Below, piece by piece: positions 3,573 through 60,960 of a DNA stretch of 64,000 bases (position 1 is the stretch's first letter; the number at the start of each line of letters is the position of its first letter). A program made the translations under genes and the position numbers. The notes below the pieces were generated by a model. That model was not told the origin of the DNA and searched no databases. It saw nothing but the letters and a program-made list of their open reading frames with translations. The stretch is from a virus. The DNA is taken from IMG/VR virus record IMGVR_UViG_3300000970_000006; one strand, written 5' to 3'.

Positions 3573-4484
3573 ATGACATTAACATTTGATTTTGACGACA
3601 TTTTAAAACAATCTACAGAATTTGAAACAACAGTTGATAAAGCATTTGAAGACGATAGTACATCCAATAATGAATGGTCAAATTATTGGAAACCAACTCC
3701 AGATAAAGCAGGAAACTCTACTTCAGTAATTCGTTTTTTACCAGCACCTCCAGGCGAAAAATCCCCATTCGTATCATATTACCAACACTATTTTACCGGT
3801 TCAAATGGTAAAGTATATTCTGAGCGTTCTCTTACGACTCTTAAACAGGATGATCCTGTTGGTAAATATAATGCAAAATTGTGGAATAGTGGTTTTGAGG
3901 AAGACAAAAAAACAGCTAGTAGCCAAAAACGGTCTAAAAAATATGTGTTTAACATTCTTGTTGAAAAAGACCCGGGCAAGCCAGAAAATGAAGGTAAAAT
4001 ATTCCTTTATCAAGCAGGTCCACAAATTTTCAACAAACTTAAAGAAGCACGTAAGCCTGAATTTGATGATGTTGAGGCCATTCAGCCATTTAGCATTACA
4101 GACACAGGTGCATCATTTAGATTGAAAACCAAGAAAAAAGGTCCATATCTAAATTATGAAGATTCTCACTTTGGACCAGCATCAGCGTTATATGGCGGAG
4201 ATGTTGAAAAAATGAGAGCTGTTTTTGAAGGCCAAGAAGTTTATAGTTTGGCTGAAATTGCAGACGTTTCCAAATATAAATCATACGATGAACTAGAACG
4301 CCGCTTGGCTGAAGTTCTTGAAGATGATGGATATGTAATGGAAAATGCAGCTCTTTCTAATAACGTTAATGATTCACCAACAGTAGAAGATGATACATCG
4401 GCAAAACAGGTCGACGAAACAATCGTTGATATGGATGACGATGAAGACTCTTTAAACGTTTTTCGTGACTTAGCAGAATCGTAA
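3573..4484 (+). CDS. 32: gp32 single-stranded DNA-binding protein
   Basis: YWKPTPDKAGNSTSVIRFLPAP, DDPVGKYN, NEGKIFLYQAGPQIFNK, NYEDSHF, acidic tail. Confidence 0.95.
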   Translation: MTLTFDFDDILKQSTEFETTVDKAFEDDSTSNNEWSNYWKPTPDKAGNSTSVIRFLPAPPGEKSPFVSYYQHYFTGSNGKVYSERSLTTLKQDDPVGKYNAKLWNSGFEEDKKTASSQKRSKKYVFNILVEKDPGKPENEGKIFLYQAGPQIFNKLKEARKPEFDDVEAIQPFSITDTGASFRLKTKKKGPYLNYEDSHFGPASALYGGDVEKMRAVFEGQEVYSLAEIADVSKYKSYDELERRLAEVLEDDGYVMENAALSNNVNDSPTVEDDTSAKQVDETIVDMDDDEDSLNVFRDLAES

Positions 4485-12128: not shown

Positions 12129-12162
12129 GCTGGTCGCGGCCAAGGAGGAGAAACCCACCAGC
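12129..12162 (-). ncRNA. 3'-UTR hairpin with anti-SD loop (CUCCUCCUU) after gp15
   Basis: gctggt/accagc stem enclosing tttctcctccttgg on minus strand. Confidence 0.4.
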
Positions 12163-12191
12163 TCTAACTGAGGCACTAATTCAGTCAGTTG

Positions 12192-42089: not shown

Positions 42090-42198
42090 AGCTGCCCGCT
42101 AAACATTGGAGAACTAAAGCGAGCAGCTAGGGTTGTGACTATAAAGGAGTACCAAAATAGTCACGTTTGTCCGGCGACATGAAAAGGAACCGGACAAA
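42090..42198 (-). ncRNA. Three-hairpin 3'-UTR RNA with anti-SD loops; last hairpin doubles as terminator
   Basis: Stems 42166-74/42190-98, 42135-42/42157-64, 42090-100/42118-28; loops contain UUCCUUUU, GUACUCCUUU, UUCUCCAA on minus strand. Confidence 0.6.
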
Positions 42199-42203
42199 TT
42201 AGT

Positions 42204-43775
42204 TTATCGTACAGGAGCACCTACAGTTTTACCGATAGCAATACTGTTATCGTATGTTTTCTCTGCACGATTAGCCTGAGATTCAAGCGTTTCATTCACT
42301 TCACCAATACGTTGAGCGAGAGCGCCGGCAGTACTTGATAGGTGTTGAACATTTGAGCTGACTTGTTCAGAAGCATGCATAATTGCACTCGTATCGCCCG
42401 TTGAATTGTTGACCAATTTCGAGAATACTTGTCCAAATTCTTCTTCGATGCTGATTTCGTCTTTGTCAGCGTTAAGAAGTGCAAGGTGACCCTCCATACC
42501 ATGAGCACAAGTAATCAAATCGCTTGTCTCAATTTTATCACGACCATACATCAATGCTGTACGTTTTGCTCGCTCAACAACTTCACGAATTGTTGCTGGA
42601 ATTTCACCTGCAAGAATTTCGCTAACTTCGTCAAGTTCGGCTTTCGGGTCAAGCATTTCACGACCATACAAAGTAATAAGACGTTGTGCAGCTTCTTTTT
42701 CAGGTGGTTTGATAGAAATAACGCTATCAAGACGTCCTGGGCGCAACATAGCTTTGTCGATTTTTTCAACATAGTTTGTTGTCATCACGGTGATAACTTG
42801 ACTTGATTTTGTGAGAACGCCATCAATTGTGTTAAGAATATCATTACCTGTTTGGTCACGAATTTCAACAACACGGTCAATATCTTCCGCAAACACAACT
42901 GCAGGTTGATAACGCTGAGCAAATTCAAGAGCAGTTTTCAAACCACGCACATCATCAAGAAGAATGTATGTCCAACCATTGTCAACACAAACTTTTGAAG
43001 TAACGTGAGCTGACATTGTTTTACCAGTACCATATTTGCCTTCAAGAAGAACACCAATATTCAAAGGAATTTGGTTTTTGAGACACGCTTCTGTGTGCAT
43101 GATTGGCGCCCACAAAGATGCTTCAACTTGTGACAATTCATTTGGATTCAAAATCAAATCATCTTGTTTGATTTGGTCTGTTTCCAAAAATAGAGGCGGA
43201 CGGTCAAGCTCAAGTTCGCCAGAACGGTCGACAAGAAGGCGAATTGATTTACCCTTATAGATTGAACGTTCTGCCAGAATTTCACGCGTTTTGACGGCCA
43301 AATCGCGAAGGAAACCTTGTTCTTTTTTGCGAACTTTGCCTGTAACAACAAGCATAGGCATGCCGTCTTCGTTACGAGTTTTATGCATTGAAATAGGCTT
43401 TTCAATGTTAGGCAATGTAAAATCACCAAATGGCACAATAATTGCTTCGTGGTCTTTTGGTCCTGTTTTGATTGTTACCAAATCAGGAGCTTGAGGGCCG
43501 AAGAAAGTCATACGGGGTGTTGGTGATGTAATACCATACATTTCAACCATTGCTTTGTTGAATGCGACCATAGCATCTTCAGGATAGCCTTCAAAATCTT
43601 CGCGAATATCCATAATGGTATTTTCGTCGTCGATTTTTCTTTGAATTGCTTCAATGGCTTTCACATATGGCATTTTGCTTGGTTGAGCCGGCAAAGTAAT
43701 TTTCTGGCCAGTGTGCTCAATTTCGGTGTCGATGTTATCCCACTTCGACGGTTTGGCTTTTTCTTTAGTACCCAT
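42204..43775 (-). CDS. AAA+ ATPase with large N-terminal domain
   Basis: LLEGKYGTGKT, VFAEDID, TTNYVEKIDKAMLRPGRLD; AAAGGAG RBS. Confidence 0.9.
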   Translation of the reverse strand: MGTKEKAKPSKWDNIDTEIEHTGQKITLPAQPSKMPYVKAIEAIQRKIDDENTIMDIREDFEGYPEDAMVAFNKAMVEMYGITSPTPRMTFFGPQAPDLVTIKTGPKDHEAIIVPFGDFTLPNIEKPISMHKTRNEDGMPMLVVTGKVRKKEQGFLRDLAVKTREILAERSIYKGKSIRLLVDRSGELELDRPPLFLETDQIKQDDLILNPNELSQVEASLWAPIMHTEACLKNQIPLNIGVLLEGKYGTGKTMSAHVTSKVCVDNGWTYILLDDVRGLKTALEFAQRYQPAVVFAEDIDRVVEIRDQTGNDILNTIDGVLTKSSQVITVMTTNYVEKIDKAMLRPGRLDSVISIKPPEKEAAQRLITLYGREMLDPKAELDEVSEILAGEIPATIREVVERAKRTALMYGRDKIETSDLITCAHGMEGHLALLNADKDEISIEEEFGQVFSKLVNNSTGDTSAIMHASEQVSSNVQHLSSTAGALAQRIGEVNETLESQANRAEKTYDNSIAIGKTVGAPVR

Positions 43776-43935: not shown

Positions 43936-43964
43936 AAAAAAAGGCCGCATAAAGCGGCCTTTTT
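43936..43964 (-). terminator. Terminator after nadV (bidirectional form)
   Basis: aaaaaaaggccgc-ataaa-gcggccttttt. Confidence 0.8.
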
Positions 43965-43977
43965 CGTATGCGTTTTT

Positions 43978-45379: not shown

Positions 45380-45682
45380 TTATTTTCCTACTGTAATGTC
45401 GTTTTCGAAGGCCGAGAGATGTAATTTTGCTTTTTTCTCAGGACCTAAATTTTTGATGTACTCAATGGCTTCTTTAAATCGGATATGCCACATTTCAGAA
45501 TCTCCGTGGTGACAATATCCCTGAGCATTTTTTCGCCAATAACCATGCTCAGTTTCAATATTGACTAATGGATTAATATAATGCCATTTCGCCGTTCTTG
45601 ATGATCTAGTAGTCGGGTATTTTCTCAAATACGCCATTGTTATAAATCGATTGCTTATTGTTTTAGCCACGAATTCCTCCAT
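45380..45682 (-). CDS. Hypothetical protein
   Basis: 100-aa ORF between nadV and natV. Confidence 0.55.
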   Translation of the reverse strand: MEEFVAKTISNRFITMAYLRKYPTTRSSRTAKWHYINPLVNIETEHGYWRKNAQGYCHHGDSEMWHIRFKEAIEYIKNLGPEKKAKLHLSAFENDITVGK

Positions 45683-45726: not shown

Positions 45727-46788
45727 TCAGTATTTGCCATTACACGATTCCTTTATTAGTTTTTGAATAATTAAAGCGTGGTCAGCAAACATCATATGTT
45801 GATTTGCCAATACTCTATCTTCGGGAATCCATGTAGCAGAACGAGCGTCGTCAGCGCCTTTAACTGTCCACAATTTTTCAGTAGGAGGTAAATCAAATAA
45901 ATGAGCGTGTGTGACCATTCTACCTCTAGCATCACGATGCGGGTCATCAAATACTTCAACTTTTTTCAAATATCGTTTTAATAATCCTGGAGGAAGAGAG
46001 CCGCGTTCATCGTGAATTTCTGTTTCTTCACCTAATTCACGAATTGCTCCATTAATAATAGATTCGCTTTCTTCCAAATATCCACCTGGAATTGCAAGTA
46101 AACCACGGCCCGGACTTTTGTCTCTGCGAATTAAAAGTAAATGTCCAGACTGACGCACTAACGCATCAACTGCAATAAACATTGGAGGAAAAGGTGAATT
46201 TTTCCATAATTCTTTATACTCATTAATGATTTCAAATTCTTCTTTGACAGACTTAAATTCAGAAGTGTCTTTATACGCCATTAACATATCGCTGACTTCT
46301 GTAGGCATAACTCCGTGGTCAATAGTTCCATACTCAAAAAACTTTTTGCGTATTGGCGTGGCAGACAGACCAGGATAATTTAAATCTAAATTCATTGGCT
46401 GATAATCAGGAAATAGTTTTAAGTAAAAACTACTTTCATCTTTTGAAAAACCAATTATTTTAATGCATGAATGTTGAAATCTGTCTCGTTGAAATTCAAC
46501 ATTTTCTCTGACAGAACGTACCCAATCGTTATCATCTTCAAAATCATTAATAGGAATAATTGTTACGCGTTCTAAAACGCCATTTCCTAAAGTAGATATT
46601 GCCGCACTAAGCATTGCATATCTAAAAGCGTATGGAAAAGATGTTCGGGTATTAATAGACATATTGCTTGAACCAATGCATATTAACAGATTATCAACCT
46701 GTTCTAATGCCTGTTCTATTGCATCTAAATGTCCAAAATGTACGGGGGAGAAACGACCTATGTATAGACCTAGTGACTTATTTGTCAT
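45727..46788 (-). CDS. natV: Bifunctional NMN adenylyltransferase / Nudix ADP-ribose pyrophosphatase (NadM-Nudix, NatV-like)
   Basis: IGRFSPVHFGH, SATPIR, PGGYLEESE...RELGEETE Nudix box, GADDA. Confidence 0.92.
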   Translation of the reverse strand: MTNKSLGLYIGRFSPVHFGHLDAIEQALEQVDNLLICIGSSNMSINTRTSFPYAFRYAMLSAAISTLGNGVLERVTIIPINDFEDDNDWVRSVRENVEFQRDRFQHSCIKIIGFSKDESSFYLKLFPDYQPMNLDLNYPGLSATPIRKKFFEYGTIDHGVMPTEVSDMLMAYKDTSEFKSVKEEFEIINEYKELWKNSPFPPMFIAVDALVRQSGHLLLIRRDKSPGRGLLAIPGGYLEESESIINGAIRELGEETEIHDERGSLPPGLLKRYLKKVEVFDDPHRDARGRMVTHAHLFDLPPTEKLWTVKGADDARSATWIPEDRVLANQHMMFADHALIIQKLIKESCNGKY

Positions 46789-46878
46789 AATTCGTAACCT
46801 CTACGAAAATTTATAATAAGAACGCCTCTTATTATTTCATGATTATATACTAACACAAAAATGTCAGTCATAAAAGTT

Positions 46879-47001
46879 TTGTGATGTTCGGGGAGTCAGT
46901 TTCATGGAGGGGGAGGCTACCCCGAACATCACAAGAGTGTGAATACTCAAACACACTCGGATATTTGCTGAAATCGGGAGGAGGATGAAATCAGCAAATA
47001 T
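46879..47001 (-). ncRNA. Cuckoo-like (alpha-r14/CcsR-type) three-hairpin sRNA
   Basis: 11-bp, 7-bp and 15-bp perfect stems; loops carry CCUCCUCCC (46976-46984) and CCUCCCCCUCC on minus strand; begins 11 nt after terB stop. Confidence 0.7.
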
Positions 47002-47012
47002 TATTTAATGGA

Positions 47013-47447
47013 TTACATATCCATATATGTTTGAAGTTCAAGACCCAATTGTTTTGCAATTTTTTCAAGAACCTTTGTTTCTTCTGCTGAAATATCATTA
47101 TCAGCGTCGGCAACATCAATTGCGCAAAGCAAAATAACTTCAGCAGCACCAGATTTACCAGCAGATTCTTCGATTTCCACATACAAACCCATACGACCTG
47201 AACGACCACCGTTTGCGCGTTTGAACATTGCATCAGATGTTTTTTCAATTTCAGAAGCACTGAACGCGCCGGAAAGATTTGGATTGTTTTGGATTGTTTT
47301 GATAGTTTCCATAACTTCATCATCAGAAATATCACCATCAGCAGCGGCTACAAGAGCAGCGGACGCACATACAGCTTCAAGAAAATCTGTGTTACCAGAA
47401 AATTTGTTCATTGAGCTTTTTAGCATTTCTTGGAATTTCAAGAGCAT
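47013..47447 (-). CDS. terB: TerB-family tellurite-resistance-like protein
   Basis: FLEAVCASAALVAAADGDIS...AIDVADADNDISAEETKVLEKIAKQLGL. Confidence 0.85.
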   Translation of the reverse strand: MLLKFQEMLKSSMNKFSGNTDFLEAVCASAALVAAADGDISDDEVMETIKTIQNNPNLSGAFSASEIEKTSDAMFKRANGGRSGRMGLYVEIEESAGKSGAAEVILLCAIDVADADNDISAEETKVLEKIAKQLGLELQTYMDM

Positions 47448-47606
47448 TTTTATATCCTTCGTTAAATACAAATACAACATTATTGTTGTTGAAAATTACA
47501 ATATATTAATACGAAAATTTATAACAATACTATTAATCTTTTTTGACAATTAATAATCCATTAACCAATTAGTGGTAATATTAATATATCAAAAACGGAG
47601 AATATT

Positions 47607-58742: not shown

Positions 58743-58819
58743 TTTTATTTTCCATTTAATTTATATTATAACTATAGTAATTAATTGCAAATATTTATTA
58801 CAATATAATGAATCTTTAC

Positions 58820-60693: not shown

Positions 60694-60960
60694 CTAACTA
60701 AGAAACGCGGCTGACATAATTATCGAGACAAAAATTACAATAGAATAAAACGCCCAATTATTAGAATATTGTTCATCTTTTTGAATATATTTTTTAATTT
60801 CATGATAATACCAAAAAGCATCAGCATCATCTTTTGGTTGAGGAAGACCTGTTAATTTGTAAATTGATTTAGCCATATCATATTCGCCTTTTTGAATTAA
60901 ATCAATTTCACTCTTTTTATATTTGCGCGGTGGCGGTATAGTTTCTTTACTCATCATCAT
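60694..60960 (-). CDS. Hypothetical protein with C-terminal TM
   Basis: AAAGGA RBS. Confidence 0.55.
   Translation of the reverse strand: MMMSKETIPPPRKYKKSEIDLIQKGEYDMAKSIYKLTGLPQPKDDADAFWYYHEIKKYIQKDEQYSNNWAFYSIVIFVSIIMSAAFLS

Follow-up and report, generated by a model that had tools for sequence, protein, structure and literature searches.

Do T4-like phages carry RNAs of the kind with which alphaproteobacteria silence translation at the ribosome-binding site? The question is raised by a 64,000-nt stretch of viral DNA, IMG/VR record IMGVR_UViG_3300000970_000006 (hereafter the window), in which three hairpins follow a terB gene. A first reading made from the letters alone (the sequence-only reading) had taken them for a phage-encoded anti-Shine-Dalgarno (anti-SD) small RNA of the cuckoo, or alpha-r14, family. 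Few small RNAs are known from lytic phages, and those few are poorly understood; cuckoo RNAs, for their part, have been described so far only from the chromosomes and plasmids of Rhizobiales and Rhodobacterales. Our analyses indicate that the hairpins in the 3' region of terB are best regarded as an anti-SD module of cuckoo-like type, belonging to a T4-like phage of low G+C content that probably carries an atypical host-style translation-silencing RNA. The scope is sequence evidence from a single genome, together with two loosely similar elements found elsewhere (on contigs L251 and L259, see below). The element and its parts are as follows.

46879-47001, minus strand: the hairpin element, which forms the terB 3' untranslated region (UTR); three hairpins with linkers of 2 and 0 nt.
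47002-47012, minus strand: an A/U-rich, single-stranded linker of 11 nt between the terB stop codon and the first hairpin; a candidate RNase E-type entry site by analogy with CcsR processing (PMC8034643).
46961-47001, minus strand: hairpin 1 (HP1), 41 nt, with an 11-bp perfect stem and a 19-nt loop, UUUCAU-CCUCCUCCC-GAUU.
46935-46958, minus strand: hairpin 2 (HP2), a 24-nt spacer hairpin with a 7-bp stem and a 10-nt loop, UUUGAGUAUU, that has no anti-SD motif.
46879-46934, minus strand: hairpin 3 (HP3), 56 nt, a degenerate, oversized anti-SD module with a 15-bp perfect stem and a 26-nt loop containing CCUCCCCCUCCAUGAAAC.

The unconstrained minimum-free-energy fold of 156 nt consists of exactly HP1, HP2 and HP3, and the 11- and 15-bp arms were recovered independently by a repeat search of the window. 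Sequence and folding thus confirm the three back-to-back perfect hairpins reported initially, 11 nt past the terB stop. On the minus strand the fold reaches -50.3 kcal/mol, compared with -23.6 +/- 3.2 kcal/mol for shuffled sequences (z -8.5), and 0 of 200 shuffles folded as well. The loop motifs are also as first described: HP1 holds the exact cuckoo motif CCUCCUCCC at 46976-46984, and HP3 holds CCUCCCCCUCC at 46906-46916, followed by AUGAAAC. Inside HP1, a 2x2 internal loop and two inner pairs lead to an 11-nt apical loop, AU+CCUCCUCCC, with a C-G closing pair. The HP2 loop had zero complementarity to ribosome sites in the pairing computation. The 'G+C-rich island' in which the hairpins were said to lie does exist but is modest, with 44-46% G+C across the element versus 33.8% for the window.

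Could such an arrangement have arisen by chance? On the minus strand of the 64 kb, CCTCCNCC occurs twice, both times inside the loops of HP1 and HP3, and sense-strand CCUCC is found in the non-coding DNA of the window only in this element and in a hairpin loop at 12129-12162. We ran 300 second-order Markov simulations of the window and counted motifs inside loops closed by a perfect stem of at least 7 bp. The mean was 0.023 per simulation, and none of the 300 contained two. The two-motif, three-hairpin arrangement is not due to chance.

Other identities were considered as well. A search of the element ruled out a tRNA or tmRNA. As for a coding explanation, no open reading frame (ORF) of at least 40 aa overlaps the element, except an out-of-frame one within terB (46991-47338) that ends in HP1. 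Loops 1 and 3 could form a 6-bp kissing pair (UUUCAU/AUGAAA), with a chance of occurrence estimated by hand at ~7%.

Is the element a cuckoo RNA? This family was delineated with a thermodynamic matcher that calls for 2-4 adjacent hairpins of 24-50 nt each without multiloops, loops of 9-27 nt, all with CCUCCUCCC or one of its listed variants, a minimum helix length of 6 bp and linkers no longer than 10 nt (PMC4615179). In 2,680 RefSeq genomes and 9 additional rhodobacterial genomes, its 321 members were found in Rhodobacteraceae, Rhizobiales and one unclassified alphaproteobacterium (PMC4615179). Among carriers of the motif are the CcsR RNAs, which RNase E cuts from the ccaF1 3' UTR (PMC8034643). 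The overall shape of the terB element agrees with that definition, with hairpins of 11, 7 and 15 bp, linkers of 2 and 0 nt and no multiloops, and both HP1 (41 nt, loop of 19) and HP2 (24 nt, loop of 10) fall within the size range. Because covariance models perform poorly for the cuckoo family according to its authors (PMC4615179), we built a model of the single module as a narrower test. We extracted 49 modules from ~40 genuine two- or three-hairpin arrays in IMG/VR viral contigs; in the commonest geometry (14/49), the loop consists of two bases plus the motif and the stem closes directly on it. The inner loop of HP1 is identical in form. A covariance model made from those 14 modules (R1; 8-bp stem, loop NN+CCUCCUCCC) was run unfiltered on both strands of the window, and its sole match in the 64 kb was HP1 (46967-46995, minus strand, 19.5 bits, E 0.024). 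HP1 is a credible cuckoo module, and by its sequence features the whole element is an atypical cuckoo variant, not a regular member of the family.

Comparison with known cuckoo RNAs (ar14, CcsR1-4 of Rhodobacter sphaeroides and NfeR1/SmelC14 of Sinorhizobium) illustrates both sides of this description. Like them, the element is composed of adjacent, multiloop-free hairpins with short linkers; its HP1 loop has the exact CCUCCUCCC and the commonest loop geometry of the family; its place, as with the CcsR RNAs, is the 3' UTR of a gene for a small protein; and it shares with them a presumed anti-SD pairing and, through terB, a link to Rhizobiales and Rhodobacterales. In contrast, its stems are A/U-rich and perfect where those of cuckoo RNAs are G/C-rich, and its motif-bearing loops measure 19 and 26 nt where those of the extracted modules usually have 10-13 nt. 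It also differs by its motifless middle hairpin, by the length of HP3 and its degenerate motif, by having no terminal U-tailed terminator, by its failure to be recognized by the Rfam models, and by its carrier, a T4-like phage of 34% G+C. Cuckoo RNAs commonly have a DUF1127 gene beside them (the CIN1 neighbourhood), and here Pfam found no DUF1127 domain among nine neighbouring proteins; the carrier is a phage, and the named homologues of terB belong to Rhizobiales and Rhodobacterales. The C-rich-loop repressors of Firmicutes (RNAIII, RsaE/RoxS) similarly have several hairpins with C-rich loops that pair with ribosome-binding sites (PMC4615179), but they are unrelated in sequence and lineage, and their motif is UCCC, unlike the CCUCCUCCC of the element.

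How might such a module work? We give an even chance to the following proposal. The hairpins would form a structured RNA in the 3' untranslated portion of the early terB transcript, or between its cistrons, and would be either related to the cuckoo RNAs (ar14, CcsR, NfeR1) in an atypical way or a mimic of them; we infer strand, expression and action in trans from sequence. Starting in the A/T-rich promoter region ahead of terB, transcription would continue through the hairpins, whose perfect stems would stop 3' exonucleases. Cleavage within the 11-nt A/U-rich linker might then free a stable RNA of ~125-150 nt, in the way that the CcsR RNAs are released by RNase E. Its open CCUCCUCCC and CCUCCCCCUCC loops would pair with G-rich ribosome-binding sites (GGAGG, GGGAGG) and exclude 30S subunits from those mRNAs. 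The same module may also insulate and stabilize the terB message upstream of the nadM promoter. The sequence-only reading had spoken of a 'stress gene' for terB and of 'reprogramming translation'; we keep both terms as interpretations.

Predicted pairings bear on the choice of targets. The 83 start regions of the phage have short A-rich sites (AAGGA, AAAGG, GGAG) almost throughout, with GGAGG in 1 of 83. Against GGGAGGAGG, a model G-rich site, the predicted energies are -19.9 kcal/mol for HP1 and -14.5 kcal/mol for HP3, versus -3 to -7 kcal/mol against AAGGA-type sites. When run against the 83 start regions, the HP1 and HP3 loops barely exceed what they reach against gene interiors (p 0.034 and 0.36, respectively). 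Host mRNAs rather than phage mRNAs are the likely targets, because the phage genes almost all use short A-rich sites. On the simplest reading of these predictions, the loops would be aimed at strong G-rich ribosome sites, i.e. at host messages. This suggests a simple, testable idea of selective host shut-off, in which the lytic phage would derive a host-style anti-SD RNA from the end of an early message and use it to stop host translation: the loops would bind the G-rich ribosome sites typical of its alphaproteobacterial host, while the AAGGA-type sites of the phage itself escape. We consider this extension unlikely as it stands; if true, the strength of ribosome sites would separate self from host. 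If a phage copy combines A/U-rich stems with the loop motif of the host in its exact form, it would clearly exemplify how a virus can take over a host riboregulator.

We searched for related elements in other genomes and contigs, and three of those found are of interest.

L251, 2226-2400, plus strand (the gene strand): a stand-alone, hitherto undescribed three-hairpin RNA gene on a 43-kb phage-like Logan contig of SRR33375187; a terB homologue of 57% identity begins ~600 nt further downstream.
L259, 4272-4420, plus strand: a look-alike of HP3 (34-nt stretch at 4272-4305), ~800 nt downstream of a terB homologue (54% identical).
L036, 6306-6391, minus strand: a two-hairpin, ar14-like element on a 64-kb IMG/VR contig, with an Rfam ar14 score of 41.5 bits, below the gathering score.

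In the L251 element, a promoter-like TTGACA is followed by three hairpins and then by a U-tailed terminator. The first hairpin is of the anti-SD type (CAUCCUCCCGA; loop ACAUCCUCCCGACUUCCU), the second is plain, and the third has CCUCCUCCC (loop AACCUCCUCCCAACACA). The succession anti-SD, plain, anti-SD is that of the window element, and the first loops of the two elements share CAUCCUCC..CGA. As in the window, the L251 hairpins are on the strand of the genes, and the contig is phage-like and carries a terB homologue. It differs by having its own promoter-like site and canonical terminator, by its position upstream of terB and not behind it, and by its G/C-rich stems. Like the window element, it is not recognized by Rfam ar14. 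Since the U-tailed terminator is on the anti-SD strand, that strand is the transcribed one in L251. In L259, the 34-nt stretch matches the 5' arm and loop of HP3 in 29 of 34 aligned columns, and the TCCAT tail shared by the two occurs in none of ~125 chance matches to the core pattern; the case for homology is suggestive. For L259, the prediction is a long stem with inserted hairpins (z -4.0), formed by the anti-SD and a GGGGGAGG downstream of it. The L036 element is flanked by a Pam3 gp34-like gene and a gene for a RecD-type helicase, beside ribonucleotide reductase, on what is clearly a viral contig. The sequence-only reading knew of no description of this family in lytic T4-like phages. We likewise found no paper describing a phage-borne cuckoo RNA; nevertheless, ar14-like arrays are present in IMG/VR viral contigs, including L036 amid phage genes.

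Other searches brought no further relatives. In bacterial prophages (Rhizobium, Roseibium, Thalassobius), no terB is followed by a module, and a small ORF follows directly; in contig L252, the gap after terB folds no better than shuffled sequences. The five cultured alphaproteobacterial phages inspected (Cp1R7A-A1, RcXuper, phiM12, Cr30 and DSS3P8) have no module and no CCTCCTCCC. The exact HP3 arms, used as a pattern, gave no match in IMG/VR. A 15-mer of loop 1 is uninformative in genomes, with hits in all phyla among the matches listed. The pattern GATGTTC..AGCCTCCCCC gave only chance-type matches in genomes and IMG/VR, none with the TCCAT tail, and a longer pattern gave one metagenome match, on an ORF-poor contig and judged to be chance, and none in genomes.

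A number of results weigh against the proposed cuckoo-like, trans-acting RNA. The motif is not present in every loop: exact in HP1, it is missing from the HP2 loop UUUGAGUAUU and degenerate in HP3, where CCUCCCCCU has two mismatches in nine positions in either register when compared with CCUCCUCCC itself rather than with the variants listed for the family. At 56 nt, HP3 also exceeds the 50-nt limit by 6 nt, although its 26-nt loop is within bounds. The Infernal search that the sequence-only reading had suggested as a check went against it: the Rfam models ar14 (RF02344) and CcsR1 (RF02791) gave no match at the gathering score, nor at E<=10 on 46700-47150, and no other Rfam family matched the element on either strand. 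Three control arrays from IMG/VR were recognized by both models, with ar14 scores of 80.5 bits for L015 and 44.5 for L025 in addition to the L036 score given above. The R1 match is itself modest, its E of 0.024 coming from a rough calibration, and HP3 was not matched by R1 at E<=10. A defined RNA 3' end is not assured either, because HP3 is not followed by a U-tract; the downstream RNA reads AACUUUUAUGA, the base of the HP3 stem is A/U-rich, and no terminator-like site was called at 46879-47001. The L259 alignment score was reached by 1 of 100 shuffled queries, blastn against phages found no close relatives, no NadM in the protein database exceeds 41% identity, and searches of IMG/VR with TerB and NadM returned just one 43%-identical, high-G+C, non-syntenic locus. 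The other contigs with the terB gene are all identical, and no RNA run is among those listed as holding the element sequence. Finally, folding of the plus strand is as good or better, at -57.6 kcal/mol (z -7.6). The fold cannot tell the strand, because all stem pairs are Watson-Crick with no G-U. The proposed folding check succeeded on both strands, each going well beyond its shuffles.

The plus-strand fold counts in favour of an RNA read from that strand, whose loops would show GGA motifs (GAGGAUGA, CAUGGAGG) in the manner of the CsrB/RsmZ sponges that bind CsrA/RsmA, or which would act as antisense to the terB 3' end. The plus-strand fold can present an AUGGA pentaloop, and CsrA/RsmA sites follow an A(N)GGA-in-a-loop rule with which CAUGGAGG agrees. 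However, there are only two GGA loops where known sponges carry many, the flanking genes are all on the minus strand, the flanking plus-strand promoter-like sites match at only 9 of 12 positions, and no Rfam family was found on that strand or the other. Furthermore, the R1 match is on the minus strand only, and in L251 the promoter and the U-tailed terminator are on the anti-SD strand. We regard a functional plus-strand RNA as quite improbable.

The surroundings of the cuckoo-like module bring in a different explanation. The relevant features are the following.

47013-47447, minus strand: terB, 144 aa, with its ATG at 47447, ribosome site GAAGGA and stop codon at 47015-47013.
46842-46871, minus strand: a sigma-70-like promoter, ATGACT-18-TATAAT, directly past HP3 and before nadM; a consensus match only (10/12).
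46813-46835, minus strand: a small 9-bp hairpin in the nadM leader.
45727-46788, minus strand: nadM, coding for a bifunctional NMN adenylyltransferase/Nudix hydrolase of the NadM type (Pfam CTP_transf_like and NUDIX, phage homologues).

By its matches to Pfam TerB (4.8e-10) and PHROG 632 'tellurite resistance' (3.5e-31), terB is a genuine gene; its start is likely at 47447 and not at 47480, in agreement with the gene call on an identical Logan contig. It is preceded by a promoter-like region of 18% G+C (47450-47600). Downstream of nadM come a 96-aa ORF (45380-45670) and a NAMPT gene, and this unit is closed by a canonical U-tailed terminator at 43937-43965. The neighbouring genes are all on the minus strand. 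The element is thus located where one early unit ends and the next begins.

Accordingly placed, the hairpins might be structural punctuation between two early units, stabilizing the 3' end of the terB message and insulating it from the nadM promoter in the way of PeSLs; the loops would then have no function in trans and could be, e.g., a remnant carried in with terB. The PeSL cassettes of T4-type phages (PMC2839356, PMC4122927) likewise place a stem-loop immediately ahead of an early sigma-70-like promoter that is followed by a ribosome site and a start codon, and they too occupy variable early parts of T4-like genomes. The same succession is found here, with HP3 ending at 46879, the promoter-like site at 46871-46842 and the nadM start at 46788, and this order fits the published description (PMC4122927). 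The region consists of small early-type genes, each with promoter-like sites, and terB looks horizontally acquired. By contrast, PeSL cassettes are short, repeated and conserved, with small stem-loops, and occupy many intergenic spaces in the variable regions, whereas the element has three hairpins with large motif-bearing loops and is single in the window. We found no further copy of its arms or of the cassette there; only the promoter region upstream of terB is weakly repeated. As terminators, the hairpins would be unusual too: they have no U-tail, and their loops of 19, 10 and 26 nt far exceed the 4-5-nt loops of the ordinary, U-tailed terminators of this phage (43937-43965, 47843-47870). 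Two exact or near-exact anti-SD motifs within loops are very unlikely without selection, and the loop sequence recurs in other terB-carrying contigs (L251, L259). Punctuation as the sole role is possible but doubtful in our view; it is compatible with the cuckoo-like reading, and the two are not exclusive.

Alternatively, might the loops regulate the operon in cis? In read-through transcripts they could pair with a ribosome site within their own operon, most plausibly that of the 96-aa ORF, and tune translation according to the promoter used. That ORF has the only GGAGG site nearby (AUGGAGGAA). The HP3 loop reaches -19.9 kcal/mol with its start region, the best of 83, including a perfect 7-bp match (CCUCCAU/AUGGAGG). 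This value is nevertheless within chance, because a gene-interior control reached -20.1 kcal/mol, and the candidate target is ~1.2 kb away. The terB and nadM start regions pair only weakly with the loops (-3.7 to -10.7 kcal/mol).

A precedent for pairing in cis could come from other anti-SD hairpins of this phage.

42090-42198, minus strand: three hairpins behind an AAA ATPase gene (stop codon at 42204), with loops UUCCUUUUCAU, ACUCCUUUAU and UUCUCC; the last is a U-tailed terminator.
12129-12162, minus strand: a hairpin (loop UCUCCUCCUU) behind a gp15-like tail sheath stabilizer gene, in its 3' region; a second hairpin precedes it (12164-12188).

Loop 2 of the 42090-42198 cluster fits the ribosome site of its own gene at -18.7 kcal/mol, compared with -13.7 kcal/mol for the next best start region and -12.9 kcal/mol for the best gene interior, and all three loops of this cluster fit phage start regions better than gene interiors. 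The loop at 12129-12162 also fits phage ribosome sites (p 1e-5). Taken together, the loops at these two loci fit the phage's own A-rich sites, with p from 1e-5 to 8e-3. Anti-SD loops in 3' regions recur in this genome, and the terB element differs from the others as the G-rich-site (cuckoo) type. We consider regulation in cis by the terB element improbable.

A decoy or sponge was also envisaged. The loops would mimic the 3' end of 16S rRNA (UCA(U)CCUCCU) and soak up a factor recognizing that sequence, such as a toxin that cleaves the anti-SD; other candidates are Hfq and those host RNAs whose usual partners are the cuckoo RNAs of the host. The 16S rRNA ends in UCACCUCCU, and the HP1 loop UCAUCCUCCU is close to it. 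This likeness arises because any anti-SD sequence automatically resembles that end. Toxins that cut the 16S anti-SD have been reported (PMC12274833, PMC12620021). We hold a decoy role to be highly improbable.

Where does a cuckoo-like module in a T4-like phage come from? The sequence-only reading took it as a hint of an alphaproteobacterial host. The nearest relatives of TerB, gp6 and NadM bear this out, so that the alphaproteobacterial connection of the phage is supported independently by gene evidence. The named TerB homologues (42-58% identity) are all from Rhizobium, Roseibium, Thalassobius, Brucella, Ancylobacter or Labrys, and the contexts that were fetched contain prophage or phage genes, e.g. 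for a CI-like repressor, AntA, integrase, AAA ATPase and DUF2201. The nearest gp6 proteins (~30% identity) are those of phages of Sinorhizobium, Caulobacter and Pelagibacter, and the nearest NadM proteins those of phages of Mesorhizobium, Rhodobacter and Ruegeria. Caulobacter, the host of phage Cr30, is a genus of high G+C content, and a sampled 2.7-kb stretch of Cr30 has 35% G+C. A G+C content of 34% does not exclude such hosts for the present phage, because the low-G+C Cr30 infects high-G+C Caulobacter. The cuckoo motif also gives a clue to the host of this phage, which is uncultured and either marine or associated with algae.

In the loci L248-L260, members of a TerB subfamily of 142-157 aa appear as an early-region gene of alphaproteobacterial phages and prophages. 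This gene is often followed by an overlapping gene of ~50 aa, and several of the contigs have genes for an AAA ATPase and DUF2201 nearby, as in the window.

The phage itself is T4-like, with baseplate and tail genes of the gp5, gp6, gp7 and gp15 types in the window. Upstream of terB, a 52-nt promoter-like sequence (47492-47543) has weaker copies at 58768-58819 and 60731-60782 (67-77% identity) and may represent the early-promoter consensus of the phage. Sequence identical to that of the window is also present on contigs from an 'algae metagenome'. In addition, part of terB (47127-47277) is matched without a difference by a 151-nt contig of a seawater metagenome, which belongs to a different study; the phage or a very close relative was therefore present outside the algal sample.

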